Shown here: piece by piece, positions 9,847 through 61,235 of the stretch
Layout of the letters: every line of letters starts with the position of its first letter
Position numbering within the stretch: position 1 is the first letter of the stretch
Source: Candidatus Tectimicrobiota bacterium
Lineage (GTDB): Bacteria; JACPUC01
Length of the DNA: 64,000 nt
Direction of reading: 5' to 3'
NCBI GenBank assembly: GCA_016192455.1
Contig: JACPUC010000019.1
Coordinates: 1-64,000, forward strand
Notes under the pieces: model-generated
What the model was told of the DNA's origin: nothing
Seen by the model: the letters and a program-made list of their open reading frames with translations, nothing else
Database searches by the model: none
Position numbers and translations under genes: made by a program

Positions 9847-9922
9847 GAGGGGTCCTGAGGATGAGGGACGGATGAAGACGGTCGGAGGCGGGCCAGCCGT
9901 GGGATCGGCACTCCCCCGCGGC

Positions 9923-11188: not shown

Positions 11189-11245
11189 GGCTCCCTGCCT
11201 GTCAGCCTCAAGCCTGTCGGCGATGCGGAAGGGAAGCTTCCCCTT

Positions 11246-29066: not shown

Positions 29067-29094
29067 GGTCGGTCGCTGAGCGTGGCTAGTTGTG

Positions 29095-29385: not shown

Positions 29386-29444
29386 TCTATCGTTGTGGTG
29401 AACTGCTTGGGCGAGGGAGGAGTGGCCTCCCTCGCCCCCTCTGT

Positions 29445-29669
29445 TTGCGACAGCTCGGCTTGGGCAGCGCCGCCGACCCCTCGATCCTCGGCCGCGTCGG
29501 CTCCAAGGCCGGCATCGACGCCGCCAAGCCCGCGCCCCCCGAGCCCTACCTAATCCCCACCATGTTCCCCGACAACGAGATGCGCCGCATTAAACTCACC
29601 GATTTCGTCCCCAAGGAGCGCCTGGAACAGGTGCCCGATGCGTTTCGGAAGGGGGAGGAGGGGGAGTGA
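29445..29669 (+). pseudogene. 3' remnant of a UbiD-family decarboxylase gene
   Basis: DPS...GSKAGIDAAKP resembles the UbiD C-terminal DPS...GSKxGIDATK motif. Host-like codon usage; no upstream coding part. Confidence 0.6.
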
Positions 29670-30014
29670 GGGGGGGGTGAAGATGATGCGGATGGCCGGG
29701 GGGGGGTGTGTTCCTCGCCACTCTACCAGAAATGTCAGATTAAGTCATAGCTATTACATCATATAAAGACTATGGGGAAAAGTATCCGCCACATGCTATT
29801 GGTAGTAGATCTGACCCTTGGAGATTTCGTCTCCGCAATATGAGCAAGAATGGTCTACCCGGGCTTTGAGCTGCTTCAGAATCTTGTAAGGATCGAGCTT
29901 TGACATTACAAGCTTCCCTCAAGAGTCCAAGCAGAATCTCAAGCTTGGTCTCCCTCATACATGATGTCCCTTCTGCACCGCTATCCTTTCTCAGTCATTC
30001 CCGATACCGTGATG

Positions 30015-31118
30015 CTAAATCCCCCGCGGTGCCTTCTCAAAGGATTCTCGAACGAAAGGCTCCGCTTCTCGCAACCGTTCCACACTGTTGACCGACAGCT
30101 CCACGTCTCCCACGCCCCAGTGCCCAATTCGGGATACATCTCTGGCAAAGCTCTGAGACGAATCAAGAGACTTTGGATTAGTCTTTACCCACACCCGGAG
30201 GCCCCCTTGCTGGAGGTGTACGCAACAGAAAATCCACTTGCCCACTGACCAGCTTATATATTTCGCTTTGTAGGCACGAGTTATCTTCCCCGGCGCGAGA
30301 TCCTGACACAGCCGATCCAACCCTCGATAGAGTTCTAGAATTTCCGTTGGCTTCCCGGTTGTGTGGTGGGCCTCCGTATATTGTGCTGCCTTGCGTGAAA
30401 CACGGCGTTCTGTTGAGTTCGTCTTCGATTCCGTTTCAGCTGAAGAATATGTGCCTGCAAACCATATGCGCCCGAGAGCTCGTTGGATTTGTGCGAGGGT
30501 GACCGAATCATCGCCTATACTCTTCCGGACGAGGCGAACGAAACTGCTCGGGGTCTGCGTAAATATTTGATCGAGTGCTTTGCGTACTTTCCCGGTTGTG
30601 AAAATTTCTGTTCCCAAGCGATCCAGAACACCTTCTGCGAGGGAGTTCTTTGAAAGACGATTAAGTTGAGCTGTTATCTGCTCGATGGATAACACCGGGG
30701 AGTCACGGGGATCAATGGATGCTTCAAACAGCAGTTTTTCTGGTGCACTGGCACGCTCGGAGGCTCTATAGACCTTGTACCGGACGCCGTTGGTTAGGAC
30801 ACACCATTCTATACCGTCATTGGCTGCATAGCCTACCACCTGCGTTATGGACTTGACGTCGTCAAGAGGATTATCGAGCTGTTTCGCCTCCATGAGGAGA
30901 ACGACCTTTCGGTTGATCCTCATAGCGTAATCCACCGATTTTCCATCAACTGTAGGGTATTCAAGTTCCACCTCGTCAGGGTCGCGCACGTCCCAATTTA
31001 GTGCTTGAAGCAACGGATCAATGAAAATGGTCCTTGTCGGGTATTCTTTCAAGCCTTTTCCGTGGTGTCTAGCCAGTTGAGTACGGAGAAATTCGATGCA
31101 TTTTTCAACTGCTTTCAT
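30015..31118 (-). CDS. Type I restriction R N-terminal-like PD-(D/E)xK nuclease fused to a DUF5655-like domain
   Basis: EYPTR..FIDPLLQALNWD, EVELEY, VDYA..MEAK, LTNG; C-terminal RDVSRIGHWGVGDVE. AT-rich relative to flanks. Confidence 0.82.
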   Translation of the reverse strand: MKAVEKCIEFLRTQLARHHGKGLKEYPTRTIFIDPLLQALNWDVRDPDEVELEYPTVDGKSVDYAMRINRKVVLLMEAKQLDNPLDDVKSITQVVGYAANDGIEWCVLTNGVRYKVYRASERASAPEKLLFEASIDPRDSPVLSIEQITAQLNRLSKNSLAEGVLDRLGTEIFTTGKVRKALDQIFTQTPSSFVRLVRKSIGDDSVTLAQIQRALGRIWFAGTYSSAETESKTNSTERRVSRKAAQYTEAHHTTGKPTEILELYRGLDRLCQDLAPGKITRAYKAKYISWSVGKWIFCCVHLQQGGLRVWVKTNPKSLDSSQSFARDVSRIGHWGVGDVELSVNSVERLREAEPFVRESFEKAPRGI

Positions 31119-31336
31119 GATTCTTCTTTCATCTTGCCACGCCCAACACTAATTAGATTGATCCGCATAAGATGCGGAACATCCGTCATCGACTTCTACC
31201 ACACGCCTTTATAGATGTTGAGATATTCATCGTATCCACTTCGCCATTACCCACAAGTTCCTGGACGATTCGAATATCATAACCTCATTTCTTGATTGTT
31301 GAGCAGCTTACGTTATTATTGAGCAACTTAAGGCCC

Positions 31337-31436
31337 GCTGTCAAGCGTTCGTTGGTCAAAGATTCGCTTAAGTATCCTCCCCTCTCCACAAACGCCACCA
31401 CGCCCTTCCCCATGGCCACCGGCGGGCGCATTGCGC
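31337..31436 (+). repeat. ~100-bp direct repeat, copy 1
   Basis: GCTGTCAAGC...GATTCGC...CCTCCCCTCTCCACA.ACGCCACC..CCCTTCCCCATGGCCACC.GCGGGCGCATTGCGC recurs at 32399-32497. Confidence 0.85.
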
Positions 31437-31514
31437 GTCTGAGCAGTTCAGGAATGTTAAATCTGGATGGTATCGCCCCGCTTTCGCCAAAAGCCTCCCT
31501 CGGAGAGGTTTCGT

Positions 31515-31853
31515 TCATGAGCGAATGAGCGATTCCGCCGACACGCGGGGATCAGGCGCTTCGACGCGCCGCACCCTGACCTTCACGTCCACCCGCAACC
31601 CGAGCCGGTTGAGGATCGACATGAGACGATCAACCGTGAAGCGGCCCAGATCCGCGTTGCGGATACGGGAGAAGTCTGCCGCCGCGACCCCCGCGCGGCT
31701 GTGCGCCGCCCGAACGCTCAACTTCTCCCGGTCGAGCGCCTTGATGATTTCGGCTGCCAGGATGGCCTTGAGCTGCTCGATATCCGCGTTCTCACACCCG
31801 AGGTCGCGGAATACGTTGCCGCTTCCCCGCACCACGTCCAGCTTCTCTTTCAT
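31515..31853 (-). CDS. XRE-family HTH antitoxin (HigA-like)
   Basis: GSGNVFRDLG, FSRIRNADLGRFTVDRL. Overlaps the toxin stop by 4 nt. Confidence 0.9.
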   Translation of the reverse strand: MKEKLDVVRGSGNVFRDLGCENADIEQLKAILAAEIIKALDREKLSVRAAHSRAGVAAADFSRIRNADLGRFTVDRLMSILNRLGLRVDVKVRVRRVEAPDPRVSAESLIRS

Positions 31854-32197
31854 CGCAACATCTCCTTCAATCTCTTCAATCGGTCCTTGATAAGATCAAC
31901 GTCCCGCTTCGGCGTCTTGATGCCCCGCGTCGATCTCTTCTGGAATACGTGAACCACCCAGATTTCATCGCCGAGCTGCACCGCGTAGACCACCCGGAAC
32001 GCATCGCCGCGATACGGCAGGGCCACCTCAAAGACGCCCGACCCCATCCCGCGCATCGGCTTCGCAATGTCCGCCTTGCCGCCAGCGGCGGCGATCGCCA
32101 GCGCCGCCAGGCAGATCGACCGCGCCCCCTCCGGGAAGGCCTCGAAGTCCTTCAGGGCCGCCTTGATCCAGGAGATAGGTCGCGGTTTCCGCGTCAT
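31850..32197 (-). CDS. RelE/ParE-superfamily toxin (HigB/Gp49-like)
   Basis: KPMRGMGSGVFEV, AFRVVYAV, VVHVFQKRS. Toxin-first gene order. Confidence 0.9.
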   Translation of the reverse strand: MTRKPRPISWIKAALKDFEAFPEGARSICLAALAIAAAGGKADIAKPMRGMGSGVFEVALPYRGDAFRVVYAVQLGDEIWVVHVFQKRSTRGIKTPKRDVDLIKDRLKRLKEMLR

Positions 32198-40968: not shown

Positions 40969-41985
40969 TCAGCGCAGGGCCCGCGGGGCGCCGCCGGAAT
41001 AGGCGAGTTGGTGGGGCTCCGCTCCCACCTCGAGTGCGGCGATGATCTCAAGAGACTGCGGGTCGATAATCAGCGTCTGACGCGTGCTGAGGCGGTTCAT
41101 GACAATGAAGTACCCCGCTGCCGTCCCCACCGTGAGGAGGTGGCCCGGCTCCTTGCCGATCTCCACGGTCTTCTCGACCTGGTTCGTCGCCGTGTTCAGG
41201 ATGGAGTACGTGGTTCCGCCGCGGTTCGTGACGTAGAGGCGCTTCCCATCGGGGGAGGCGGCGATGCCGTGCGGGCCCATCCCCGTCTTGACGCGGCCGA
41301 TCTGCCGGCGGGCCGCAAGGTCGATGATGCTCACGTCGCCGGAGAAATTATTCGTCACGTAGAGGCGCGTGCCGTCAAGCGACAGAGCCAAATGGTCCGG
41401 CGCTTCCCCCGTCGCCACCGTTCCCACCACCTCCTGTTTGCCGGTGTCAATGATCGCCACCCGATCAGCCTCGCGGTCGGTCACGTAGGCGAAGCGCGAA
41501 TCCGCCGAGAAGATGACCGAGTCCGGCGTTTTCATCCCCTTGATCTTGGCGACGAGGCTCTGCCGGGCGACATCGACCACGGCGACGAAGCCGGCCTTCT
41601 CCGTGGTGGCGTAGGCCCACGCGCCATCCGGAGAGATCGCCACATGGTGGGAGTGAGTCCCCAGCTCGATCTCCTTGACGATCTGCCCGCGTTGCGGGTC
41701 AGCGAGGATGAGTCGCGTCGATTGCGTGATCGACGGCACGACCAGGAGCTTCCCATCCGGGGTGGCTGCGAGCCCATGCGGCTGCGCTTCCACAGGAATG
41801 GAACGCAGAATCGCGCGCTTGGCAAAGTCGATGACCAGCACGCGCTTGGCAGGTCCCATGGCGAGGTAGAGCTCTCCCGCCACGGAAACGGCCAACGCCG
41901 GCGCCGCCCGCGCCAGGAGCCCCAGCAGGACCAAGGCGCACACGGCACTCAAACCACGAGCCGTCAGAGAGATCCTCACGCGCAT
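40969..41985 (-). CDS. Exported YVTN/YncE-type beta-propeller protein
   Basis: Signal peptide, seven repeats (PHGLAATPDGK, SPDGKRLYVTN etc.). GGAGG RBS. Confidence 0.9.
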   Translation of the reverse strand: MRVRISLTARGLSAVCALVLLGLLARAAPALAVSVAGELYLAMGPAKRVLVIDFAKRAILRSIPVEAQPHGLAATPDGKLLVVPSITQSTRLILADPQRGQIVKEIELGTHSHHVAISPDGAWAYATTEKAGFVAVVDVARQSLVAKIKGMKTPDSVIFSADSRFAYVTDREADRVAIIDTGKQEVVGTVATGEAPDHLALSLDGTRLYVTNNFSGDVSIIDLAARRQIGRVKTGMGPHGIAASPDGKRLYVTNRGGTTYSILNTATNQVEKTVEIGKEPGHLLTVGTAAGYFIVMNRLSTRQTLIIDPQSLEIIAALEVGAEPHQLAYSGGAPRALR

Positions 41986-42039
41986 CGTAACCCTCCTTGA
42001 TCCACATGCAGCAGCCGCAGCGCGCGCCGGCGGCTTCCC

Positions 42040-42522
42040 TCACCGGAGGGATGGCCCCGGCGGCGTCTCCGGCGCCACGTGGTTCTCTCGTTTGGCGCTC
42101 GCTCCGCCTGCGGCGAAGCTGCGCAGGTAGGCGATGAGGTCCTCGATCTGGTAGGGGCGCAGCGTCCTTCCCCAGGCCGGCATGAGGTAGGAGAGGCCGG
42201 CGCCTGGGCCGCCTTCGGTGATCACGCGCCGCAGGTCATCGGCGGACCTCGTCGCCATGTAGGCAGCATCGGTAAAGTCCCGCGGCGCCTTGGCCAGGAA
42301 CTCGGCGTTGCTCCCCCTGCCATCCCCACGCGGGCCGTGGCATGCGGCGCAGTAGTAAGCGTACAGCGCCTTGCCGCGCTGCAGCCGTTCCGTTCGTCGG
42401 GGCGGTGTGATGAGCGGCGCCGCCTGGCGAGGCTCCTCGGCTCCGAGCGCCGTCGCGGCCAGCACGGCCAGTGCGAGCAGGAGAGCCCCCGCCACCTTTC
42501 TTGCGCGGTCACTGCGCGTCAT
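42040..42522 (-). CDS. Monoheme c-type cytochrome
   Basis: Signal peptide, CAACHG, PRDFT, distal Met MPAW. Confidence 0.93.
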   Translation of the reverse strand: MTRSDRARKVAGALLLALAVLAATALGAEEPRQAAPLITPPRRTERLQRGKALYAYYCAACHGPRGDGRGSNAEFLAKAPRDFTDAAYMATRSADDLRRVITEGGPGAGLSYLMPAWGRTLRPYQIEDLIAYLRSFAAGGASAKRENHVAPETPPGPSLR

Positions 42523-44578
42523 CGGTTTTCAAGCTCATCAGGTAGGCGGTCATGGCCGCGGCCTCGGTGTCGCTGATGCCGAGGTTCGGCATGCGCGTGT
42601 GGCGCACGAGAAGCTCAGGCGTCTGCATCATCCCCCGCACCCAGGCCGGCTGCAGCCGCGCCCCGGCGCTGCTGAGGTCCGGCCCCACCCGTCCGCCCCG
42701 CTCGCCGACGCGGTGGCAGGCGATGCACGGGTGCACCCGCGAGAACAATCGTCGCCCCTCTTGGATGAGGGCCTCGGTGCTCTCCTCCTTGCCGGGGTGG
42801 GGACCGAGCCCATCGGCGCGCAGCATGGAGGTGGCGTAGGCGACAAGGACCTCGATCTCGTTGTCAGTCAGGCGGAAATCCGGCATGCGCGCGCTCGACA
42901 GGGGGTTGCGCGGCTGCGGCTCCGCCAGGTAGCGTCGCAGCCAGGCCGGGGTGACCCGGCTCCCCAGCGCCGTGAGATCGGGACCGATGTCGCCGCCCTG
43001 GGCGCCGATGCGGTGGCACGTGAGGCAGCGATACCGCTCCACGACGGCGCTCAACTCCCCCTTATGGAGCATCGTCGGGGCGCGATCAGATGCCGAGGGC
43101 ACTCGATACTTTTGCGGCGGCTTGTGCGGCAGGCTGAGGATGAAGGTCGCCAGGGCATCGGTATCTTCCATGGCGACGTTGGGATAGGGCATCCTGGCGT
43201 CTTCGTAGAAGGTATGGGGCGTCATGATCTTGGCGAAGAGCCAGCTCTCCGCGGTGCGGTTTGCCCCCAGCTCGTTGGAACCGAAATCGAGTTCCTCAAC
43301 GCCTTTCAGCGCGAACTTCGTCAGGTCGGGGCCGGGACTCCCCTTGGGAAGGCCGCGCAGGAGATGGCAGCCGGTGCAGTTGGAGCTCAGCACGATCTCC
43401 CTGCCGCGCTTCCTGAGCTGCTCCTCGGAGGAGACCGCCCCGCCCCCTCGTTCGCTTGGCAGCGCCGGGGGGGCACTTGTGTGCCGGGCTGCGGGTTTCT
43501 CGTCTGCTGCCCTGCTCAGCAGGTAGCTTGCCAGGTTCAGTGCCTCCCGGCGCGAGAAGCGGTAGGCCGGCATGCGCCCGCTGGGCTGCTCGCGGCGGTT
43601 GTCCTGCAGGTAGCCGACCAGCCAGGCGGCGTTCACCTTCTCGCCCAGGGCGGTGAGCGGCGGGCCGATCTTCTCGGGCGCCAGCAGACCCTCCGGTTCG
43701 GGACCGGAGAAGTCATGGCAGGTGCGGCAGGCGGAGCGCTCGAAGAGCTGCTTGCCCACCTCGGCATCCGCCTGGGCGAGCTCCTCGGCGCGCAGCTCCG
43801 GACGGGGCAGGGGCGACCCTGCCGCGGCAGATGCCGCCGGCTCCTCCTCGCTCATCAGGTAGGCGACGAGCGCGTCAAGTTGCTCCTCCTTGAAGCGGTA
43901 GTTCGGCATGCGCGCCGCCGGCCAGACCTGCTGCGGGTCCTGCAGGTAGCGTCGCACCCAGGCGGCGCTTGTCTTCCGCGGTAGGTGATCGAGGCTCGTC
44001 TTCGCCTCGGCCGGCAGCTCCCGGCCGCTCACCGTGTGGCAGCCCAGGCAGTTGAGGCGCTCGAAAAGCTGCTGCCCCCTGACGGCGCGCGGCGCCTCCA
44101 CCACCCGGGGCTGGGCGTGGCAGCCGAGGCAGGGAGCTTCCAGAAAGGCCGCCGGCAGCAGCGGGTACTTCCAGCTCGCCTTGCGGCCGTGCCCGCCGTC
44201 AACGCTTGTGCCAAGGCCATCGCCGCGATGGCACACCGTGCAGCCGAAGGACTCGACCGGATGGAAGCGCAGGAACGGCTCGGGATGCGCCGTGAGCGGC
44301 TGCGGCCAGGCGGCGGCGCGCTCCTCCGTCACGCCGAGGTGGCACGTCGTGCAGCGGTCGAGCACGCCGAGGGCCGGCACGTTGATCTGCGCGATGCCCT
44401 TGACCGCAGCCTCTCCCTTTGCTGCCGGGGCGGCTTGCCCCGTCCCGGCCGCCGGCCGCACCAGGCGCGCGTACTCCTCCTGGTGGCCCACCCAGTCGCG
44501 CTGCCGATCCCTCCACACAGCGAGCAGGATCGCCGCCAGCAGGGCGAAGCTGAAGAGCACGAAGAGGACATACCTCAT
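42509..44578 (-). CDS. Membrane-anchored octaheme cytochrome c
   Basis: N-terminal TM helix; 8 CxxCH motifs (CTTCH, CTVCH, CLGCH x2, CRTCH, CTGCH, CLTCH, CIACH); five RMP distal-Met motifs. Confidence 0.93.
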   Translation of the reverse strand: MRYVLFVLFSFALLAAILLAVWRDRQRDWVGHQEEYARLVRPAAGTGQAAPAAKGEAAVKGIAQINVPALGVLDRCTTCHLGVTEERAAAWPQPLTAHPEPFLRFHPVESFGCTVCHRGDGLGTSVDGGHGRKASWKYPLLPAAFLEAPCLGCHAQPRVVEAPRAVRGQQLFERLNCLGCHTVSGRELPAEAKTSLDHLPRKTSAAWVRRYLQDPQQVWPAARMPNYRFKEEQLDALVAYLMSEEEPAASAAAGSPLPRPELRAEELAQADAEVGKQLFERSACRTCHDFSGPEPEGLLAPEKIGPPLTALGEKVNAAWLVGYLQDNRREQPSGRMPAYRFSRREALNLASYLLSRAADEKPAARHTSAPPALPSERGGGAVSSEEQLRKRGREIVLSSNCTGCHLLRGLPKGSPGPDLTKFALKGVEELDFGSNELGANRTAESWLFAKIMTPHTFYEDARMPYPNVAMEDTDALATFILSLPHKPPQKYRVPSASDRAPTMLHKGELSAVVERYRCLTCHRIGAQGGDIGPDLTALGSRVTPAWLRRYLAEPQPRNPLSSARMPDFRLTDNEIEVLVAYATSMLRADGLGPHPGKEESTEALIQEGRRLFSRVHPCIACHRVGERGGRVGPDLSSAGARLQPAWVRGMMQTPELLVRHTRMPNLGISDTEAAAMTAYLMSLKTDDAQ

Positions 44579-44579
44579 C

Positions 44580-45356
44580 TCACATCGACCCCCACGGCGT
44601 CGTCACCACGTAGTGCACATCCCACAGCAGCCGCAGGGCGATCTTCAGGAAGACGCCGCCCATGAGGGCGAGCAGGCTGACCATCCAGACGTAGCGGAAG
44701 CGTCCCATGCGCGGCAGGAACGAACCACGGAAGCGCCATCCCAGGCAGGCGACGAGGAGGAGGTAGGCGCCCACGACGAGCGCGCCGGCGAGCGGCGAGA
44801 AGCTCCAGCTCTGCGCGGCCCCGTTCTGCCCCTGCCCTGCCGCAACCGCCGACCAGGGCGTCACGAAGCGCCATCCCGCTCCGCGGAACCACGCCCCGAC
44901 GAGGATGAGGAGGAACCAAAACGTCAGGCCGACAGTGAACACGACGTTGCCGAAACGGCGGCTGCGGCGTGGCGTTGGGCTGCGCCCGGTTCTGCGGCTG
45001 TCTTCGAGGAACGGCAGCGACATGAGCCCAAGGACGATAAGGCCGGGAATCACCACGCCGGCCATCCAGGGGTCGAAGTAGACGAGGAGCTCCTGCAGCC
45101 CCACGAAGTACCAGGGCGCCTTGGTCACCGCCGGCGTGAAGGCGGAGTTTGCCTCACCCTCCAGGGGAGCATCGAAGACCACGGAAAGGAGAACGAAGAA
45201 CGCCGTCACCGCCAGGACAGCCAGCAGTTCGAGGAAGACGAGGGTCGGGTAGCTCGGCACCCTGTCGGCCCCATCGGGGCCTTGACGCGCGGCGCCCACC
45301 TCAGTTTCCTCCGCCTCCCCCGAAGCCGCGGCCTCGAGCGGCGCGTTTTCCAGCAT
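44580..45356 (-). CDS. Cytochrome b C-terminal / subunit IV-like protein
   Basis: APLEGEAN..TP..KAPWYFVGLQELL (PEWY-equivalent), LMSLPFLE, extra TM helices. Confidence 0.87.
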   Translation of the reverse strand: MLENAPLEAAASGEAEETEVGAARQGPDGADRVPSYPTLVFLELLAVLAVTAFFVLLSVVFDAPLEGEANSAFTPAVTKAPWYFVGLQELLVYFDPWMAGVVIPGLIVLGLMSLPFLEDSRRTGRSPTPRRSRRFGNVVFTVGLTFWFLLILVGAWFRGAGWRFVTPWSAVAAGQGQNGAAQSWSFSPLAGALVVGAYLLLVACLGWRFRGSFLPRMGRFRYVWMVSLLALMGGVFLKIALRLLWDVHYVVTTPWGSM

Positions 45357-45458
45357 CCTTTTCTCCACCTCCAGGCTCCTCCCCCCAAACCTCACTCCGG
45401 TGGGCGCCGGCAAGGGCTGCAACAAGCACCGCCCTGCTCCCCGCTCGCTTCCCCACTC

Positions 45459-46202
45459 TTAGAGCGGCGTCTTCAGCATGCCGTCCTTCCGCACCCGCCA
45501 GAAGTGCACCATCATGAGGACGATGGCGACGACCGGCAAGACGAAGACGTGCAGGACGTAGAAGCGGATCAGCGAGCTCTCGCCGATGACCCGGCCGCCA
45601 AGGAAGTAGAACCCCACATCGGTGTTGAGATCGACCAGGCTGGCCGGACCCGCGGCGCCGAGGACCGGCATGGCGCGCAGCATGTTCGTGCCCACCGAGG
45701 TGGCCCAGTACGCCAACTGATCCCACGGCAGCAGGTAGCCGGTGAAGCTGAGGAAGAGAGTCAGGACCAGCAGGCTCACCCCTACCACCCAGTTGAACTC
45801 GCGCGGCGGTTTGTAGGCGCGCGCATAGACGACGCGCGCCATGTGCGCAATAACCGTCAGAACCATCCCATGCGCCGCCCAGCGGTGCAGGTTGCGCAGG
45901 AACTGTCCCATGGTCACGGCGTACTCGAGGTCCTTCATGTCGCGGTAAGCGAAGGCCGTCGTCGGACGGTAGTAGAACATCAAGAGGAGCCCGGTGACGG
46001 TCAAGATGATGAAGAGGAGGAAGGAGATGCCGCCCATGCAGAAAGTCGTCGTCAGGCGCAGGCGCTGGCGCGGCAGGGTGGCGGGATGCAGGTGCAGGAA
46101 GAAGTTGTTGCGGGCCGCCTGCTTCTGCTCGCGCGGGCTGCGCGGCAGAGGGCGGCGGAAGACGGCGCGCCAGACCTGGCTGGTGAGAATCGCCTTGCGC
46201 AT
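45459..46202 (-). CDS. Cytochrome b6-like subunit (split cytochrome b)
   Basis: [41 protein letters not shown]...VH; Cys in FCMGG. Confidence 0.95.
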
Positions 46203-46265
46203 GCCTTGGTCCTTCCGGCTCGCGGGGCGCTCGGCAGAGCCGCAGCGCCACCCTGCCAGCTCCGC

Positions 46266-46862
46266 TCACGCATTGATGACGAAGGGGGCGCGATCGCGCT
46301 GGCCAGGCTGGTTGGCTTGCTCGGGGAGGCGGATGCCGGCAAGCCCGTTGCGCACGAGGAGGCGTCCATCGCGGGTCAGGTGGAGAGGGCTGCGATAGAG
46401 CGGTTCGGGCGCCGGCCCTTTGACCACATCACCCTCAAGGTCGAAGACCGAGCCATGGCAGGGACAGCGGAAGACCTGCTCGCTGGGGGTCCAGCGCGGG
46501 GTGCAGGCAAGGTGGGTGCAGATGGAGACGAGCGCGTAGAGCCGCGCATCACGCCGCACCAACCACACCTTCTGGTCCTCCACCCATTGGGTGTTCACGG
46601 TGTCGGCCGGAAGATCAGCGACGGGGGCGGGACTGAAGGTGGCCGGCGGCTCGTCGACGACGTTCGGCTTCATGAACCGCACCAGGTTGTAGCCGGAGAT
46701 GAGGGAGGCAAGAGAGAGCCCCCCGAAGCCGGTCCACAGGCAGAAGGTGCGTCGATCAAGCTGGCGTGCGGCATTCCCGCGGGGAGAGGAATCCCCTCCC
46801 TGCGGAGACGCCTGCTCCGCTCCCTCCGGCCGAGAGTTAGTTGGTGTTGGCTCTCTGCTCAC
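46266..46862 (-). CDS. Rieske [2Fe-2S] subunit
   Basis: Tat motif DRRTF plus TM helix, CTHLAC, CPCHGSVF, GPAPEPL. Confidence 0.95.
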   Translation of the reverse strand: MSREPTPTNSRPEGAEQASPQGGDSSPRGNAARQLDRRTFCLWTGFGGLSLASLISGYNLVRFMKPNVVDEPPATFSPAPVADLPADTVNTQWVEDQKVWLVRRDARLYALVSICTHLACTPRWTPSEQVFRCPCHGSVFDLEGDVVKGPAPEPLYRSPLHLTRDGRLLVRNGLAGIRLPEQANQPGQRDRAPFVINA

Positions 46863-47304
46863 GACCCGCTCCTCTAGCACCTTACACCTGCGGAGACCAC
46901 TCCTCAGATGGGAAGGAGAGGCCGCCGAGCCGCCGCCGTCCCTGCCGCAACGGAGAGCCCCAGGCGCTCTCCGCCGTCCGCTGCAATGAAGGTAGCTGAA
47001 CGTTCACACGACACCGACCTTAGGCGAGAATGTGTAACCCGAATCTTGCCGGCGCAAGGGCATCTAGAGATCGTTCCGTGGGTCTCCGCCTCTCGGCCGC
47101 CAGGGGTTGCGCCGGCGGGGAAACAGCGCACCCTCGCCGCTGGGTTATGCGGCATCCGGTACCCTCAATCTCCGTCGTTCTGCTCGTTAGACGACGCCCT
47201 GTTCCATCCAGAAGCCCCAGCTTCGCGGCAGCGCGGCGCCGCCGTTTGCCCTATCGCGCTCCCCTTGCGGCCGCGCTGATGGGATGGCCGCCCCCACCCT
47301 GGGT

Positions 47305-47853: not shown

Positions 47854-48429
47854 TCAAGTCTCTTCGAGGAGCTGCTTGATGAAACGATTGATGCCGGGAG
47901 AGGTCCACTCCCGCGGGCCCACGGCGACGGCCACGAGGCGACCGCGCTTGTCGATCAGGAAGCTCTCCGGATGGCCGCTGATGCCGTAGTCTTGCGCCAC
48001 CGCGCTGCGCGTGTCGAGGAGGCTGCGGAAGGTCCAGCCGCGGCGCTGCATCTGCCGCGTCACCATCCCCTCAACCTCACCGACATTGACGGCGAGCACC
48101 ACGAACCGCGGATCATCTTGAAACGTTTCCATCAGCTTTTGAATTGAAGGAGACTCCTTCAAGCATGACTGTCACCAGGTGGTCCGAAAGGTGAGGAAGA
48201 CCACCTTGCCGAGGAAGCTCTGCAGGTCCACGCGGACGCCTCTGGTGTCCTGCAGCGAGAAGGTCGGCGCCGGGGAGCGCGGCTCATACATCTTCATGAA
48301 CACCGCGTAGCCTTCGGCGTTGCGCCGCAGGAGCGCTTCACGCTCGACCACCTTGCGCGCCAGCAGAACCAGGAAGATCAGGATCAACCCCCCCATGACC
48401 CAGACGCCGTAGCCCCGGAAGACGCGCAC
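47854..48429 (-). CDS. TlpA/ResA-like thioredoxin, putative selenoprotein (UxxC; TGA at 48172-48174)
   Basis: ORFs 48172-48588 and 47854-48162 are in one frame. Read-through gives APTFSL...GKVVFLTFRTTW-U-QSC-LKESP...VLAVN...YGISGHPESFLIDKRG...GPREW, a complete TlpA fold. Confidence 0.88.
48144..48162 (-). promoter_or_regulatory. Candidate bacterial SECIS hairpin (TlpA-like gene)
   Basis: UGA-N9-UUGAAGGA-GUC-UCCUUCAA: perfect 8-bp stem, 17 nt between UGA and a loop that begins with G. Confidence 0.65.
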
Positions 48430-48445
48430 CGCAGCTTCACCCGTC

Positions 48446-48940
48446 TTAGTAATCAAGGTGGTGCAACTCCTCTTGTAAACGTTGGCGGTACATGGCCAGG
48501 TGGGCCTCCTGCAGCTCCGTCGTGGAGGCCTTGGGGGACGCATCGGGGCTCTCCCTGCGACGCTTGTTCGACCACAGGAAGAGCACACTGCTGAGCAGGA
48601 ACCCGGCCCCCACCAGGACCGCGAACGGGGTCACCCAGGCGGTGAGATCGAAGCCCCGCTTGGGGGGCGCCGCCAGGATCTTGGCGCCGTACTGGTCGAC
48701 AAAGTAGGCGATGATCTGTTCCTTCGTCTGACCGGCGGCAAGTTTCTCCGTGATGAGCGCCTTGGCCGGCACCGCCCACCCCTGCATCTCGCAGATAGCG
48801 AGAACCTTGTTGCAGCCGCACTGGCAGATGAGGTCGGCGGCCACGTCCTGCATAGTCACCCCTGCGCTCGCCGCATGCCCTGCCCCATGGAGGAGCAGGA
48901 ACGCGACCAAGAGGATGCCGAGCAGCGTGACGGTTCTCAT
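48446..48940 (-). CDS. ccmH: CcmH/NrfF-like cytochrome c maturation protein
   Basis: Signal peptide, LICQCGC, YFVDQYG..ILAAPP..GF..AWVTP, TM helix. Confidence 0.85.
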   Translation of the reverse strand: MRTVTLLGILLVAFLLLHGAGHAASAGVTMQDVAADLICQCGCNKVLAICEMQGWAVPAKALITEKLAAGQTKEQIIAYFVDQYGAKILAAPPKRGFDLTAWVTPFAVLVGAGFLLSSVLFLWSNKRRRESPDASPKASTTELQEAHLAMYRQRLQEELHHLDY

Positions 48941-49512
48941 GGGCGCGACTCCTCTGCTGGGGCTGCGGCGGTGTTCCGAGCGAGCGCGGCGCCGCAAGCG
49001 GAGCAGAGCGTTTCACTCCTTGGCGCCAGGCGCCCGCAGCTCCAGCACGAAATTCGACATGGCGCGCCGCACTGCGTGCAGAAAAAGTTTCCGGCCCGCA
49101 GGAGATGGCCGCAGGAGCGGCAGCGGTCGGCCGGCGCGGCGAGCGACTCCATCTGCGCACCCGCCTCTGCCGAGAAGGCCGGGACGCCCGCCCCTCTCCG
49201 CTCTTCCCCTCGCCGGCGGCGTCGATCCCCCTTGAACTCCCGCGGTCGGGCATCCAGCTCCTGGAGGATCGCAATGGCTGCCTCGGATTGCGCCGCGTGC
49301 AGCTCCGCGAAGTCTTCCGCCGAGAGCTTGCCGGTGAGGTGATCGAGCTCCAGATCCTTCAGGGCCAGCAGGGCCGCCTCCTTGCGCTCCCACAGCTCAT
49401 CGGCGGCGCCCCGCCGGGAGCTCTCCTTGGCGCCCCGGAACCAGCGCGAGAAGGGGTAGCTCACCACGCCGGCCGCAACGATGATGATGGCAAGCTCAAG
49501 CAACACGATCAT
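48937..49512 (-). CDS. Membrane-anchored double zinc-ribbon protein (CcmI N-terminal-like)
   Basis: TM helix, LKDLELD..TGKLS.EDF, four CxxC pairs. Overlaps ccmF and ccmH. Confidence 0.8.
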   Translation of the reverse strand: MIVLLELAIIIVAAGVVSYPFSRWFRGAKESSRRGAADELWERKEAALLALKDLELDHLTGKLSAEDFAELHAAQSEAAIAILQELDARPREFKGDRRRRRGEERRGAGVPAFSAEAGAQMESLAAPADRCRSCGHLLRAGNFFCTQCGAPCRISCWSCGRLAPRSETLCSACGAALARNTAAAPAEESRP

Positions 49513-51581
49513 CAGGCGCCCTCCTCGGAAGCGTTGGGGAAGCCGTAGGCGCGCGAGCTTCGCAGCGCCGCGGCAGGGCTGGCGAGCGCCGGCGCAGCCG
49601 CGTCCCGCGCCGGCTGCCGACCCTGCGACGGGGCGCGCGCGCCACGCAGCTCCGGCACCGGCAAACCGGTGATGAGGGTGCCGAGGATCCAACCCAGGCC
49701 ACCCAGCCAGAGCCAGGAGATGAGGGGGTTGATGACCGCTTTCACGACGATGCGGTCGCGCTCCATCTCAGCCAGGATGACGTAGAGGTCCTCCTTCAAG
49801 GTTGAGCGCACCGCCACCTCGGTGGTGCTTTGCTCTTGCCGGAAGTGGTACTCCTTGCGGGGTTTCAGCGTCCCGAGCGAGGTCCCCCCGCGCCAGACGC
49901 TCAGCGTCACCTCCAGGACCTCCTTCCCCGGCTCGCGCCAGAGGTTGACGGTGTCAAGCTGCAGGCGGTACTCCCGCACGCTCAGGGACTCGCCCCGCAG
50001 CAGCCCAGCTTGGTGCTCCGTCTGGAAGGCGCTGCCGGTGATCCCCACGACCATCATGAGGACGCCGAGGTGGATGACGTAGCCGCCATAGCGCCGGCGG
50101 TTGCGCCCGAACAGCCCGATGAGCGCCTGCGCCCAGCCCGCCCCCTTCATCTGCTGGCGAGCCCGTGTGCCGCGGTAGAACTCGATGATGATCGAGGCGC
50201 CCACGAACGCCGCAAGGCCGAAGCTTATCACCACAAAGGGGTCGCGCAGCCCGCCCAGCACCATGCCGAGCAGCGCCAGCCCGCCCAGCAGCGCCGGCGG
50301 CACGAGGTTGCGCCGCAGGTTGCGGGCCGTCGCCTTGCGCCAGGCGATGAGCGGGCAGATGCCGGTGAGCAGCAGCATGGCCAGGAAGATCGGCGCCATC
50401 ACCTGGTTGAAGAACGGCGGCCCCACCGTCAGCTTCACGCCGCGCACCGCCTCGGAGATGAGGGGGAAGATCGTCCCCCACAGCACCGCGAAAGCGCCGC
50501 CGACGAGGAGCAGGTTGTTGAACAGGAAACTGCTCTCCCTCGAGATGAACGAATCGAGCTGGTGGGCGCTCTTCAGCAGCGGCAGCCGCCACACCAGGAG
50601 GCTCAACGAGCCAAACAGCACAACGCCCATGAAGCCCAGGAGGAGCGGTCCAACCGAGGCCTGCGCGAAACTGTGCACCGAAGTAATGACGCCGCTGCGG
50701 GTGAGGAAGGTGCCGAACAGCGTCAGCGAGAAGGTCGCCATGATGAGCGCCATGTTCCAGACTTTCAGCATCCCCTTCTTCTCCTGGATCATCACCGAGT
50801 GGAGGAAGGCGGTGCCGGTGAGCCAGGGCATGAAGGAGGCGTTCTCCACCGGGTCCCACATCCAGAAGCCACCCCAGCCCAACTCGTTGTAAGCCCACCA
50901 CGAGCCAAAGAGGTTGCCTATGCCCAGGAAGAACCAGGCGAAGAGTGTCCAGTTGCGCGTGCGGCTCACCCACTCATTCCCCACCTTCCCCGCCAGCAGG
51001 GCGCCGATGGCAAAGGCGAACGGAACGGTGAAGCCGATGTATCCCAGGTACAGCGTCGGCGGATGGAAGAACATGCCGGGGTTCTGCAGCAAGGGGTTCA
51101 AGCCGCGGCCATCAGCCGGCACTTGCGCCGCAAGCTCGAAGGGGTTGCTGCTGAAGTTCGTCAACGCCAGGAAGAAGGTCAGCACCGTGAGCAGCACCGG
51201 CAGCACGTAGGGGAAGATGTCGCTCGGTCGCCGCTCGTTCTGCACGATCACCACCACGACCATGAGCGACAGCACCCACACCCAGAAGAGGAGGGACCCT
51301 GCGAGACCGCCGTAGAACGCCGACAACGTGTAGACCAGCGACAGATCGCGGCTGGTGTAGCTGGCGACATACTGCAGGGAGAAGTCCCGGGTCACCAGGG
51401 CATAGATGAGCGCCGCCGAGGCCACGCTGAGCAGGACGCCGAGCATCACGCCGGCGCCAAGGGCGCTGGCGGTGGAAGCCCCGTGCCGGCGTTTGGCGCC
51501 GAGGACCGACACCCCCAAGCCATAGAGTGCCAGCAGGAACGCGAAGAAGAGAGCAAAGCGGCCAAGGTCGATCATGCGCAC
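49512..51581 (-). CDS. ccmF: Heme lyase CcmF/NrfE family
   Basis: GSLLFW, GLNPLLQ..HPP.LYLGY, WAYNELGWGGFWMWDPVENAS, TRSG..SVHSF, HLGV. Confidence 0.96.
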   Translation of the reverse strand: MRMIDLGRFALFFAFLLALYGLGVSVLGAKRRHGASTASALGAGVMLGVLLSVASAALIYALVTRDFSLQYVASYTSRDLSLVYTLSAFYGGLAGSLLFWVWVLSLMVVVVIVQNERRPSDIFPYVLPVLLTVLTFFLALTNFSSNPFELAAQVPADGRGLNPLLQNPGMFFHPPTLYLGYIGFTVPFAFAIGALLAGKVGNEWVSRTRNWTLFAWFFLGIGNLFGSWWAYNELGWGGFWMWDPVENASFMPWLTGTAFLHSVMIQEKKGMLKVWNMALIMATFSLTLFGTFLTRSGVITSVHSFAQASVGPLLLGFMGVVLFGSLSLLVWRLPLLKSAHQLDSFISRESSFLFNNLLLVGGAFAVLWGTIFPLISEAVRGVKLTVGPPFFNQVMAPIFLAMLLLTGICPLIAWRKATARNLRRNLVPPALLGGLALLGMVLGGLRDPFVVISFGLAAFVGASIIIEFYRGTRARQQMKGAGWAQALIGLFGRNRRRYGGYVIHLGVLMMVVGITGSAFQTEHQAGLLRGESLSVREYRLQLDTVNLWREPGKEVLEVTLSVWRGGTSLGTLKPRKEYHFRQEQSTTEVAVRSTLKEDLYVILAEMERDRIVVKAVINPLISWLWLGGLGWILGTLITGLPVPELRGARAPSQGRQPARDAAAPALASPAAALRSSRAYGFPNASEEGA

Positions 51582-52204: not shown

Positions 52205-52735
52205 TCAGGGCACGATGAAGTTCCCCTTGATGCGCAAGCGCGTCTCCGGTTGGCGCGGATCGTTCGATTTGATCACCGCTTCGAAGAGGTGCGGTCCTTC
52301 CATCCCCTTGTGCATCATGACGGAGGTGGTCACGGTTCCAGAGAAGCCGGGCTGCAGGGTGACCTCACGGATCACCATCTCCGGCGGTCAGCACCCCTCG
52401 AGCACTTTCATTTGGATCTTCTGATCGCGCCCGAACTCATTGGTGATGCGCAGCTCCGCATCGCCGACGTTGCGGTACACGAACGCATAGGGAGCCAGAC
52501 GATCAATGTACACCTTGCCGAAATCGACGAACTGGGTGTCAAACTCGATCTTCGGCCCCAACGCCACCGCCGGCCCGCCGGGCGCCGCGGCAAGGGGCGC
52601 GAGCTGCGCCGCGGCAGCCGCCCCCGCCGACCAGCTCAGGGCCACGACAGCGGACAGCAGGAGCAGGCCGCACACCGCCACGACGATGCGCGGGAAGCGT
52701 TCCAAGACTCTAGCTCGCGCGCGGCAATCTCTCAT
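52205..52735 (-). CDS. Exported DUF1573-like Ig-fold protein, putative selenoprotein (CU; TGA at 52388-52390)
   Basis: Signal peptide, GPKIEFD...DFG....F.YRNVGDAEL.I, then EGC-TGA-PP and an open in-frame continuation (LQPG, MMHKGMEGPH.F...SNDP..P...L.IKG) to a stop at 52205-52207. Confidence 0.8.
52346..52385 (-). promoter_or_regulatory. Candidate bacterial SECIS hairpin (DUF1573-like gene)
   Basis: UGA-N11-GGUGAUC-CGUGA-GGUCACC upper stem, G second in the loop, 18 nt between UGA and loop; GCCGG/CCGGC lower stem. Confidence 0.6.
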
Positions 52736-57948: not shown

Positions 57949-58112
57949 CGCGGCGCGCGGCCAAGCTGCGGCGATGAGGGGGCGCGCCAGACGCGCCGCG
58001 CAGCGGTGAAGAGCAAATTCACAGTTCCGTGGGACGTTGCGAAGGGTCGCGGCTGGTCAACTCGCCCGCGAAGGAGAGACCCCAGGACGTGGAACCGGTG
58101 CGAGGGTGGAAC

Positions 58113-58523
58113 ATGGATGCATGGAGAAACGTGTTCCAGAGTTTGTTACGAAGAAGAGAAAGAACCTCGAGGGGATTCACGCTCATCGAGATGCTGCTGG
58201 TGGTATCAATCATCGGGCTGTTGGCGGCAATCGCCATGCCGGGGTATCAACTCTACTCTCGCCGCGCGCGCCGCGTTGAGGCGCGCCAGGAACTCGGCCA
58301 TATCCGCCGCTTGCAGGATAAGTTTTTCGCCGAGAACGGCAAGTACGCGAAGACGGGATCCGAGTTGAGCTACGAACCTCCAATCGGCGCCACCTACTAT
58401 AAGTACAAGGTGGCTGATGACAAAACTTCCACCGCAACCGGCAAGGCGGGGTTTGATGTTCAGGGAGAACTCTGGACCCTCACCTACGCCACCGGAGAGA
58501 TTATCTGCAAAGCCGGGTGTTAG
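58113..58523 (+). CDS. Type IV pilin-like protein
   Basis: Prepilin cleavage site G|FTLIEM with E5, hydrophobic helix, two C-terminal Cys. Confidence 0.92.
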   Translation: MDAWRNVFQSLLRRRERTSRGFTLIEMLLVVSIIGLLAAIAMPGYQLYSRRARRVEARQELGHIRRLQDKFFAENGKYAKTGSELSYEPPIGATYYKYKVADDKTSTATGKAGFDVQGELWTLTYATGEIICKAGC

Positions 58524-58647
58524 GGGTTCGTTGACCTGCGAAACGTACAAGTTGATTCTCCATCCAAGCTTGGCAATACTCTTCTTCCAGAACTTCTATT
58601 GTGTGAGATTTAATTTCCGATACTGAAAAACTCGTGCAGGGAACGCT

Positions 58648-59610
58648 ATGAGAGTGGATATTACCTACCATTATCCCCCTGAATTGATGAGTCTCCTCAT
58701 CGACACAATTCCGCTTCTCAACAAAGCGAAAAAAGATGTGTTTCTGTTTTTCCAAGGTGCTGGGGTGGCGGACTCACTCATGAGGCTTCCCCTTCAACGG
58801 TGGAAACAAGACAGGAACAACATAAACAAATTTGAGATTGCCCGGCAAGTTTTAGTCGAACTTAATGCGAGAGGCGAAACATGCTTAAGAGAACGTCGAG
58901 AAGTTCTAAAGCGTGTGATTGAATTCGAGTCTTTTTCATCCTGCTGGCCAGCGGATCAGCTCAAAGCAAGGGGATTAGTTGCAGAAATTCAGAAGGTAGT
59001 TAACGTCAAGGATAGCTTTACGCGTATGGCAAAAGAACGTGAGGCGACCCAACAAGCCCACATAGCTAAAAAACAGGCTGAGATCGATAAGGCTACCAAA
59101 AAGAGAGATGCGATCACAAAGGTAAAAAGTGACCTATCCGCCTTGTTTACCGAAGGTGACAGGCACAGACGAGGAAAGGCATTGGAAGGAGTCTTAAACT
59201 CTCTATTCGAGGCTTATGGCATTCTCATACGTGAGGCGTTTTCTCTTCCCGGCGATCAGGGCGAGGGAGTGGTTGAACAAATTGATGGTGTCATTGAGCT
59301 TGATGGCCACCTATACTTCGTCGAGGTGAAATGGTGGAAGGAGCCACTTGGTGTTGCAGAAATATCACAGCACCTTGTCCGGGTTTACCATCGTGCCGAA
59401 AGTCGCGCAATCATTATCTCTGCCTCTGACTTCACCGCTCCTGCCGTGACTACATGCAAAAAAGCATTGCAGCAGAAGGTAGTGGTGCTATGCACGTTGC
59501 AAGAAATCACAATTTTACTTGAAAGAGAGGGTGACCTTCGTGAGTTTATCAAGAAAAAAGCCCAGGCCTCAATAGTTGATGGTAACCCCTACTTCGAGGT
59601 CCGCATGTAA
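58648..59610 (+). CDS. Mrr-like PD-(D/E)xK restriction endonuclease
   Basis: RGKALE, EQIDG....VEVKWW, IISASDFT; AT-rich relative to flanks. Confidence 0.82.
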   Translation: MRVDITYHYPPELMSLLIDTIPLLNKAKKDVFLFFQGAGVADSLMRLPLQRWKQDRNNINKFEIARQVLVELNARGETCLRERREVLKRVIEFESFSSCWPADQLKARGLVAEIQKVVNVKDSFTRMAKEREATQQAHIAKKQAEIDKATKKRDAITKVKSDLSALFTEGDRHRRGKALEGVLNSLFEAYGILIREAFSLPGDQGEGVVEQIDGVIELDGHLYFVEVKWWKEPLGVAEISQHLVRVYHRAESRAIIISASDFTAPAVTTCKKALQQKVVVLCTLQEITILLEREGDLREFIKKKAQASIVDGNPYFEVRM

Positions 59611-59648
59611 TCAAACAACGGAACGGGCACCTTGACCGGACATCCCCC

Positions 59649-61235
59649 TCACCCCCTTCTCTTGCGCTGCACCTGCTTGTAGACGCCGAAGCCGAGGACG
59701 ATGACGGGGAGCAGCACCACGGAGAGCCAGAAGATGGCCTGCGGCTCGGCGCCGCTGAGCAGGACGGGGCTCCCTTCGATGTCTTTCGGGCGGATGGCGA
59801 TGAGGTCCTCATCCTGCGCCAGCCAGCTCAGGGTGTTCATGAAGAGGTCGCTGTTCCCCTGCAGCTTGACGGCGTTGTTGCTGGCGAAATCGGAGTCGCC
59901 GAACACCACGAGCCGGGCCTGCTTCGGCTCCGGCTGCGCCGTGGGACTGGGGCTGGCCTGCCCCTGGTTCACGTCCACGGTGGCGACCACCGCCACGGAA
60001 ACCGGGCCGGCAATATCCTTCCCTTGATCGAAGACTGCCTCGCCTTGATCGAGCTTGGCGCGGTCGGTCTCGCCCCAACTGTTCGGGCTTGTCTTCGCCA
60101 GGGTCTGCACCGTGATGCCCAGGCCCGGTTTTTCCTTCGGCCGCACGGAGGTGGCGAGGGGGAAGAAGGTGACGACGTTGAACCGATCCGTAATGGGATG
60201 CTTCTCGTACGACGAGACAGTGGGGACGACCTCATCCACGCCGAAGAGCCGACTCAGCTTGTCCAGAACGATGTCGTTGCCGAGGACCACGCCATACTTG
60301 TCGAGCAGCTTCGCATAGCCGGGGGGGGTATCGGGATCGAGCAGGAAGAGGGCATTGCCCCCCTTGGCGATGAATGCGGTGAGACGTTCGAGCTCCTTCT
60401 CGTGGAGCTCCCGCCGGGGACCGGCGATGATGACCGTGGTGGCGTCGTCGGGGACCTTCTCGGCGGTGAGGAGGACGAGGTCCTTGAGGTCGTAGTTGGA
60501 GCCGCGGATGGTCGCGGCGATCTGGCTGTATCCATCCTGAGCAGAATTGTCGCTGCTCTTCTCGCCATGCCCTTTCAGGAGGTACGCCGTCTTGTTCTTC
60601 TCGCGCAGCACCTTGATGAGGCCGTTCGTCAGATCCTGCTCGCGCGGCGCAACCAGCTTCTCCTCCTTCTTGCCGGCTTTCAGCACCACGGTGCCGTAAC
60701 TCTTGATGCCGAACTTCTCGGCTTCACGCGGGCTGCGGTCGGGATCAACGAAACGAAAGCTGAACTTCTCGGAGAGGTAGGCATAGCGGTCGAGCAGGTT
60801 CTGCATCTCCAGGCGGCCGCCCTGCGCCTCTTCATAGAAGGCGATCACCTCGACCGTCTGCTTCAGGTTGCGCACCACCTGCTGCGTCTGCGGGGCGAGA
60901 GTGTAGCGGGCCGTCTTCGTCACGTCGAAGCGCTTCGTATGCTTGGTTGAGAGCACCTCCACCATGACGGCGATGCCAAGCACGACGAGGATCATCAGGG
61001 TGGCGGCGAAGCCGTAGCGGGTGGAGCGGCTCCCCAGCCAGCCGCGCAGGCGGGCGAAGTTCACCAGGAGGGCGATGAGGAGCAGCACGAGCCCCACGAT
61101 GAGGAGGACGACGCTGCTGGTCACCAGGGTTCTGTACGCCAGGCGGACCACCAGGCCCACGGCCACCAGAACGGCCCCGAGGAGACCGAGCCAGGCCGCC
61201 ACTTGCTGGCTTCGACTCGGATACCCTGCACCCAT
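59649..61235 (-). CDS. GldG-like ABC transporter auxiliary protein
   Basis: N-terminal TMs, D.T...YTL..QT, FVDPD, GHGE, IIAGP, VFGDSDF, C-terminal TM. Confidence 0.88.
   Translation of the reverse strand: MGAGYPSRSQQVAAWLGLLGAVLVAVGLVVRLAYRTLVTSSVVLLIVGLVLLLIALLVNFARLRGWLGSRSTRYGFAATLMILVVLGIAVMVEVLSTKHTKRFDVTKTARYTLAPQTQQVVRNLKQTVEVIAFYEEAQGGRLEMQNLLDRYAYLSEKFSFRFVDPDRSPREAEKFGIKSYGTVVLKAGKKEEKLVAPREQDLTNGLIKVLREKNKTAYLLKGHGEKSSDNSAQDGYSQIAATIRGSNYDLKDLVLLTAEKVPDDATTVIIAGPRRELHEKELERLTAFIAKGGNALFLLDPDTPPGYAKLLDKYGVVLGNDIVLDKLSRLFGVDEVVPTVSSYEKHPITDRFNVVTFFPLATSVRPKEKPGLGITVQTLAKTSPNSWGETDRAKLDQGEAVFDQGKDIAGPVSVAVVATVDVNQGQASPSPTAQPEPKQARLVVFGDSDFASNNAVKLQGNSDLFMNTLSWLAQDEDLIAIRPKDIEGSPVLLSGAEPQAIFWLSVVLLPVIVLGFGVYKQVQRKRRG

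Follow-up and report, generated by a model that had tools for sequence, protein, structure and literature searches.

A probable selenocysteine codon in the active site of a TlpA/ResA-like thioredoxin-fold gene next to ccmF- and ccmH-like genes of a Candidatus Tectimicrobiota bacterium

The stretch of DNA analysed here, referred to as the window, comprises 64,000 nucleotides of a Candidatus Tectimicrobiota bacterium (assembly GCA_016192455.1, contig JACPUC010000019.1, positions 1 to 64,000 of the forward strand). Its minus strand carries, at 47854..48456, a gene for a 200-residue protein with a TlpA/ResA-like thioredoxin fold and an N-terminal membrane anchor, as judged from the read-through translation, Pfam matches and an AlphaFold2 model. 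Under translation table 11 this gene appears as two open reading frames (ORFs) of the same frame, 48172..48588(-) and 47854..48162(-), and the halves are separated by a single TGA at 48174-48172. An initial annotation of the locus had pointed out this break and suggested that the TGA encodes selenocysteine (Sec, U); the ORF track indeed splits the gene at exactly that codon. With the TGA translated, the product reads ...FLTFRTTW-U-QSC-LKESPS....

The in-frame TGA (48172..48174, minus strand), placed by homologue alignment, is U86 in the residue numbering used below, which counts from a GTG at 48429 and also underlies the labels C89 and P154. Counted from a TTG at 48456-48454, the proposed Sec codon is codon 95. 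The initial annotation had taken the GTG as the gene start, but the TTG is more likely, since it is preceded at a distance of 10 nt by a GAGGAG and since the N-terminal piece of a close relative (94 aa, see below) has the same length and position as the TTG-started upstream half. From the TTG, the gene overlaps the stop codon of the preceding ccmH-like gene (48448-48446) by 11 nt. A hydrophobic segment, residues 8-24 (48358..48408, minus strand), recognised in the sequence and lying inside a helix of the AlphaFold2 model, is the likely membrane anchor, and we assume the membrane topology of TlpA, ResA and CcmG by analogy. Downstream of the TGA, two invariant alignment columns correspond to the TGC of the resolving cysteine in the U-Q-S-C motif (C89, 48163..48165, minus strand) and to the cis-proline codon of the thioredoxin fold (P154, 47968..47970, minus strand). 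The translation ends at a terminal TGA (47856-47854, minus strand); as this codon was likewise translated in the stored read-through protein (P0001), the last residue of that protein is artefactual. An alternative genetic code with TGA as a sense codon is ruled out because TGA is an ordinary stop here, terminating 24 of the 39 ORFs of the window.

The two halves belong together at the level of the protein domain. The Pfam profile AhpC-TSA runs across the TGA over residues 52-178 (1.3e-20, 74 bits, cut-off 26), and so does Redoxin (2.6e-18, 66.7 bits, cut-off 26.6), while Thioredoxin_8 scores 39.1 bits (cut-off 27). Fifteen of the 40 matches from a word-indexed homologue search were aligned with the query, and the TGA column is the first Cys of W-C-x-x-C in all 15 of these homologues. 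Invariant columns flank the TGA on either side, and those downstream (C89, P94, D139, P154, G163 and G171) are all kept. The Pro of C-x-P-C, in contrast, is replaced by Ser in a column that is otherwise at least 90% Pro. The AlphaFold2 model built on this alignment consists of one confident domain (mean pLDDT 89.3, pTM 0.77), in which a long N-terminal helix (4-44) holds the anchor and U86 immediately precedes helix 87-102. When the model was compared with the Protein Data Bank (PDB) using Foldseek, the top matches were 3kcm from Geobacter metallireducens (TM 0.93 on the target, rmsd 1.3) and Bacillus subtilis ResA, followed by TlpA and CcmG, with a probability of 1.00 for the ResA, TlpA and CcmG structures. 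A PDB sequence search gave the same order (3kcm 7.3e-21, ResA 2.5e-20). Both halves thus form one TlpA/ResA-type thioredoxin domain, and the passed domain cut-offs, the position of U86 and C89 before a helix, the cis-proline and the complete fold place the protein in the TlpA-like thioredoxin-fold family (PF00578/PF08534; cd02966). The initial annotation was accordingly right that the halves are intact and in frame and that the stop sits on the first Cys of the motif; it had expected Cys or TGA at this column, and every aligned homologue has Cys.

Apart from one relative, homologues of this protein are distant. The word-indexed search yielded full-length matches of at most 40% identity, and an exhaustive search returned 61,236 proteins at E <= 1e-3, the best full-length identity being 44% among the 150 listed. 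No full-length homologue between 44% and 95% identity was found among the matches listed, so that Sec and Cys orthologues could not be lined up in a graded series. A search among shorter proteins produced exactly two matches, both 95% identical to the query and each listed with one 2499-nt contig. One of them, an N-terminal piece of 94 aa (P0044), stops at the Trp preceding the TGA site; the other, a C-terminal piece of 92 aa (P0043), starts at the first ATG downstream of it. Judged from these protein pieces, a second organism, from another assembly, is interrupted by a stop at the same codon. When genome contigs were scanned with the read-through protein, 75 pattern matches reduced to three confirmed loci, and no TGA-bearing orthologue was among them. 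All three loci are distant Cys forms that happen to have the peptide WCQSCLKE in common. As all more distant homologues have Cys, the Sec form was probably derived from a Cys ancestor. Such an origin has been argued for rare selenoproteins with widespread Cys homologues in a passage of a published survey (PMC1794560), and the argument as given there fits the present gene.

The relative bears directly on two explanations that do without Sec. The first is a sequencing or assembly error, the true codon being TGC or TGT. Only one base would have to be wrong and the window comes from one assembly, but the same codon is broken in the relative from the other assembly, and an error would leave unexplained the rare-codon hairpin described below; we therefore regard this explanation as very remote. 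The second is a pseudogene, in which TGC or TGT mutated to TGA in the common ancestor with the relative and the downstream half survives as an undecayed remnant. A Cys codon is a single step from TGA, and at such low divergence from the relative little decay would be expected yet. Against it, the frame and the end are intact in both organisms and the substitutions are spread evenly, with 5 of 93 positions changed in the upstream half (not counting the start codon) and 5 of 92 in the downstream half, and the C-terminus is identical. Had the downstream half evolved neutrally and 3-5 times as fast as the upstream half, a split as even as this would be expected with P = 0.08-0.016, or with P = 0.22 had it evolved twice as fast. 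The equal substitution supports, albeit weakly, that the downstream half is not decaying. Moreover, the stop sits on the one catalytic codon where Sec replaces Cys in related families, according to the published passages cited at the end of this text. Together with the hairpin, these observations make a pseudogene improbable, though less so than a sequencing error. Both outcomes had been named in the initial annotation as ones that would speak against a Sec codon, and neither was borne out: the relative from another assembly is split at the same codon, and the downstream half retains its end, the cis-proline and the other invariant columns.

Immediately after the TGA lies a hairpin that resembles a bacterial selenocysteine insertion sequence (bSECIS) element (48144..48162, minus strand; 5' arm 48162-48155, loop 48154-48152, 3' arm 48151-48144). 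It was described in the initial annotation as a perfect 8-bp hairpin with a G-initiated loop starting 10 nt downstream of the TGA, and is present as described: 9 nt separate the TGA from a perfect 8-bp stem, the 3-nt loop begins with G followed by U, the energy is -7.7 kcal/mol and the spacing between UGA and apical loop is 17 nt. The bSECIS constraints, as given in a figure legend (PMC13188914, Fig. 2 legend), are an apical loop of 3-9 nt with an upper stem of 4-16 bp, G as the first or second base of the loop, mostly with G or U after it, a distance of 16-37 nt from UGA to loop, and a minimum free energy of at most -7.5 kcal/mol. The hairpin lies within all four, so that the comparison with the bacterial SECIS model proposed in the initial annotation came out in its favour. 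To see how often such a structure occurs by chance, we applied a perfect-stem implementation of the model to 13,414 in-frame codons of the 38 Pfam-supported ORFs of the window. A compliant hairpin with a stem of at least 8 bp and a spacing of at most 20 followed 96 of these codons (0.72%). When the region was recoded synonymously according to the codon usage of the window, none of 3000 recodings gave a compliant hairpin.

The codons that build the hairpin are unusual for this genome segment. Right after the TGA stands a run of 20 rare, A/T-ending codons (48112..48171, minus strand), with a GC content at third codon positions (GC3) of 0.45 vs 0.95 for the 20 codons before the TGA and an average of 0.89; among 13,832 control windows, no more than 0.33% reach a GC3 this low. 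Among them are TCA, TTG, TCT, CCT, TCA, ATT, CAA and TTT, whose fractions range from 0.02 to 0.13. The hairpin arms themselves use codons that make up 2-6% of their synonyms (TTG, TCT, CCT, TCA), and the codons after the arms are rare too. It appears from these comparisons that the nucleotide sequence after the TGA, and not the peptide alone, is under selection, and we infer that the hairpin functions as a SECIS. For the pseudogene this is a difficulty, because a dead gene would not keep a SECIS-compliant hairpin made of codons used at 2-13% that none of the 3000 recodings reproduced.

A further explanation accepts that the UGA is read through but not as Sec: a near-cognate tRNA for Trp or Cys, or a suppressor, would decode it, and the hairpin would merely stimulate the process. 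The base after the in-frame TGA is C, which is the case for just 2 of the 24 terminal TGAs in the window, and UGA followed by C is a weak termination context in E. coli. However, with Trp in place of the nucleophile the enzyme would be inactive, and the hairpin spacing and the G/U loop fit a SelB-type model. In published work, moreover, recoding of this kind where thioredoxin-fold proteins have Cys is the signature of Sec. We consider this explanation quite unlikely, somewhat more so than a pseudogene, and prefer decoding of the UGA as Sec.

Several observations nevertheless weigh against decoding as Sec. The close relative is a single one and is known as protein pieces alone, and 10 substitutions make a weak test against neutral decay. 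The hairpin clears the energy threshold by 0.2 kcal/mol only, and the bSECIS model is permissive, as 1,427 of the 13,414 control codons (10.6%) pass it. If 63-71 nt are folded from at or before the UGA, another long, imperfect hairpin forms that uses the same 5' arm, and the pair probability of the 8-bp helix is at most 0.01 in that fold. The 71-nt fold is no stabler than shuffled sequences (z -0.84; 41 of 200 shuffles fold as well), and its overall stability is ordinary among recodings, 37% of which are at least as stable; overall folding energy was therefore rejected as evidence for a SECIS. A search with Rfam at an E-value threshold gave no match beyond chance near the TGA. Finally, the 64-kb window holds no tRNA-Sec, selA, selB or selD, an absence that would also suit a pseudogene or non-Sec read-through: the two tRNAs detected (Glu and Lys) are the sole Rfam matches at the gathering threshold, and no SelA, SelB or SelD was found among the 55 ORFs scanned with Pfam.

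The competition between the two hairpins depends on where folding begins. Leaving out the first 9-15 nt, numbered from the U of the UGA, mimics a ribosome that holds the UGA and encloses this stretch; with this start and at least 60 nt of 3' context, the 8-bp hairpin has a mean pair probability above 0.5 in 17 of 21 sub-windows. Its 5' arm could pair with any of three 3' segments within 45 nt, since similar segments of the UUCAA type recur in this region, which gives rise to the competing long hairpin. Taking the Cys column of the homologues, the relative split at the same codon and the fit to the SECIS model together, we hold it highly probable that the gene is a genuine selenoprotein gene with Sec at the first active-site position, and the corresponding claim of the initial annotation is upheld to that extent.

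Fifteen in-frame TGAs of the window passed a crude filter for flanking coding-like sequence. Those other than the present one and a TGA at 52390(-) were discarded; from their translations and Pfam matches we take them to be shadow frames or places where neighbouring genes adjoin. The TGA at 52390-52388 interrupts a secreted Ig-like/DUF1573-like ORF (52205-52735, minus strand), recognised by weak profile matches, about 4 kb from the thioredoxin-fold gene. It directly follows a Cys codon, giving the motif G-C-U-P-P, and both matches across it are weak: DUF1573 with 22.4 bits (vs 26.1) and 'OS_HP2 family (seleno)protein' with 21.4 bits (cut-off 100). A 7-bp hairpin of -8.2 kcal/mol with G second in the loop begins 11 nt after this TGA. 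It is less telling than the first hairpin, as 16.9% of synonymous recodings also yield one, and Rfam at an E-value threshold gave chance-level matches only. If real, this second possible selenoprotein gene would be independent support for Sec decoding in the organism.

The surroundings of the thioredoxin-fold gene point towards cytochrome c maturation. On the same strand follow one another a ccmF/nrfE-family gene, an ORF with a zinc ribbon, a ccmH-like gene, the thioredoxin-fold gene, an NfeD-like ORF and then a respiratory cluster. The haem lyase gene of the ccmF/nrfE family, two genes upstream (49512..51581, minus strand), matches the Pfam profiles CcmF_C (8e-61) and Cytochrom_C_asm (4.4e-40), and its CcmF/NrfE NCBIfam subfamily score of 449 bits is under the cut-off of 569. 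The ORF between ccmF and ccmH (48937-49692, minus strand) combines a hydrophobic N-terminus with a C-terminal double zinc ribbon (DZR 3.1e-07); its presence within a ccm cluster is unusual. Directly upstream of the thioredoxin-fold gene lies the ccmH-like gene (48446..48997, minus strand; Pfam CcmH 1e-17), whose product has C-Q-C-G-C at a position where we take CxxC to be the motif of CcmH. The respiratory cluster downstream (40969-46880, minus strand), assigned by Pfam and NCBIfam matches and by counts of CxxCH, encodes a Rieske protein, cytochrome b, an ExtQ-like membrane subunit, an octahaem cytochrome of 689 aa with eight CxxCH motifs, a mono-haem cytochrome c and a YNCE-like beta-propeller; the ExtQ match is weak (48.4 bits vs 150). 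No ccmABCDE genes turned up in the window.

Since the thioredoxin-fold gene overlaps the end of ccmH, comes two genes after ccmF and is followed by the cluster for Rieske, cytochrome b and octahaem cytochrome c, its product would most likely act on the cysteines in the CxxCH motifs of apocytochromes c or on CcmH. From this gene context, a role in cytochrome c maturation is somewhat favoured over the other functions that a selenoprotein of this fold may have. The initial annotation had gone further and let the reductase serve the adjacent CcmF/CcmH system; the same-strand gene order with ccmF and ccmH agrees with that, but the curated profiles do not single out a CcmG/DsbE or a ResA. On NCBIfam, the CcmG/DsbE models are missed clearly (TIGR00385 40.3 vs 123.15 bits; PRK15412 26 vs 359), the best match, ResA NF002854, remains below its cut-off (86.6 vs 170 bits), and so does TlpA (58.6 vs 230 bits). 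The model of ResA-like WAxxUGC selenoproteins, NF041054, scores 31.1 vs 300 bits, the present protein having T-T-W-U-Q-S-C instead. Because the ResA, TlpA and DsbE/CcmG cut-offs are all missed, we assign the protein to no group narrower than the TlpA-like superfamily; it plausibly works like CcmG or ResA. It also counts against a role in cytochrome c maturation that no CcdA/DsbD electron donor was found among the 55 ORFs scanned.

The missed cut-offs are what one would expect if the protein were a true selenoprotein with another role, be it a TlpA-type reductase for copper-centre assembly (Sco/CoxB), a general periplasmic reductase or a thiol peroxidase. AhpC-TSA as the best Pfam match, Ser instead of the usual Pro in C-x-P-C and the lack of ccmABCDE in the window agree with such a role. 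On the other hand, the gene overlaps the ccmH stop by 11 nt with ccmF two genes upstream on the same strand, ResA, an apocytochrome c reductase, is the nearest among characterised structures, the Glu aligned with ResA Glu80 is kept, and haem-rich cytochromes are encoded just downstream. With these points on either side, another role seems less likely to us, and service to cytochrome c maturation remains the assignment that we prefer.

Other parts of the window carry features of their own. A haem biosynthesis run (6146-12058, minus strand) consists of hemB, a fused methylase/hemD, hemC and hemA, and a CcsA-like 'cytochrome c assembly' gene lies directly upstream of hemA; this run fits a cytochrome-rich organism. 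Two islands of low GC content (51-57% vs about 66%) are probably acquired DNA: one at 29000-32000 with an HSDR_N-like ORF and a Gp49/HTH_37 pair, the other at 58000-59650 with a type IV pilin-like ORF and an Mrr_cat nuclease-like ORF. The SHMT of the organism has no relative above 67% identity; its best matches elsewhere, at 62-67%, bear names from several groups (Desulfuromonadia, Bacillota, Thermosulfurimonas, Deltaproteobacteria).

Taken together, we propose that the locus harbours one intact gene for a membrane-anchored thiol:disulfide reductase of the TlpA/ResA type with the motif U-Q-S-C. The UGA at 48174-48172 would be decoded as Sec by the standard bacterial route, in which the hairpin 10 nt downstream would serve as the SECIS and, with the UGA in the ribosomal A site, be bound by SelB carrying Sec-tRNA(Sec). 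By analogy with other proteins of this fold, Sec, as the N-terminal residue of the motif, would attack the disulfide of the substrate, presumably that of an apocytochrome c or of CcmH, and Cys89 would resolve the resulting selenylsulfide. With Sec instead of the nucleophilic Cys, the protein would be expected to reduce its substrate faster and to resist over-oxidation.

For annotation, this would mean that two fragments are merged into one selenoprotein gene, and the deep-branching organism would count as a user of Sec. If the link with the ccm genes is true, Sec would enter the thiol-reduction branch of cytochrome c biogenesis and the supply of selenium would be tied to the assembly of the respiratory chain. 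A bolder and more tentative proposal is that cytochrome c maturation in this organism could be selenium-dependent, in that the sole thiol reductase encoded with the CcmF/CcmH module would be a selenoprotein and the assembly of the complex of Rieske protein, cytochrome b and octahaem cytochrome would be gated by Sec insertion. In open-access full texts we found no published link between a Sec-containing reductase and cytochrome c maturation, the supplements of selenoproteome surveys, which possibly list gene contexts, lying outside that search.

Among known systems, CcmG/DsbE of System I (1kng, 3kh7) shares the fold and the neighbourhood of ccmF and ccmH with the present gene. The stretch G-x-x-G-x-P-E-[ST]-F-L-I-D is similar to what we take to be the CcmG motif. 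CcmG/DsbE differs in giving weaker PDB matches (1e-8 to 1e-6), and the gene order here, F-(zinc ribbon)-H-reductase, is set apart from it. B. subtilis ResA, the apocytochrome c reductase of System II (1st9, 1su9, 2h1b), is likewise a membrane-anchored extracytoplasmic protein with a thioredoxin fold, is 35-37% identical and superimposes with a TM of 0.87-0.91 on the target. Both share the pattern W-C-x-x-C-x-x-E, whose Glu aligns with Glu80 of ResA, and the cis-proline. ResA, however, has Cys in a CEPC motif, whereas the present protein would have Sec, carries QS without Pro between the two positions and is encoded beside ccmF and ccmH of the System I type. The best match in sequence and structure, 3kcm of G. 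metallireducens, shares a motif near the C-terminus, which reads G-P-R-E-W in the present protein, but has Cys in its active site (WCPPC) and no known function.

The closest counterparts with Sec are found among published selenoprotein families. According to passages of four papers (PMC9312934, PMC1794560, PMC1088965, PMC13188914), selenoproteins with UxxC and PF00578, PF08534 or cd02966 (TlpA-like) domains form recognised families; they include the 'Prx-like thiol:disulfide oxidoreductase' (PF00578; UxxC/UxxU) of Geobacter, Syntrophus and Desulfotalea and, in published tables, the 'Redoxin family protein' (PF08534; UxxC). With its PF00578 domain and UxxC motif, the present protein answers to the description of the Prx-like family. 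As described in these passages, the Prx-like selenoproteins likewise have AhpC-TSA as their best Pfam match, UxxC with Sec first and a bacterial SECIS right after the UGA, and they were predicted by the same logic of Sec/Cys pairs; a link with ccm genes is not mentioned in the passages, and the likeness is one to the family description. The TlpA-like and Redoxin UxxC selenoproteins agree with the present protein in domain and motif and are, as far as these sources go, known solely from metagenome-derived predictions. The kind of selenoprotein proposed here is thus already known, UxxC selenoproteins with a thioredoxin fold having been catalogued since the mid-2000s.

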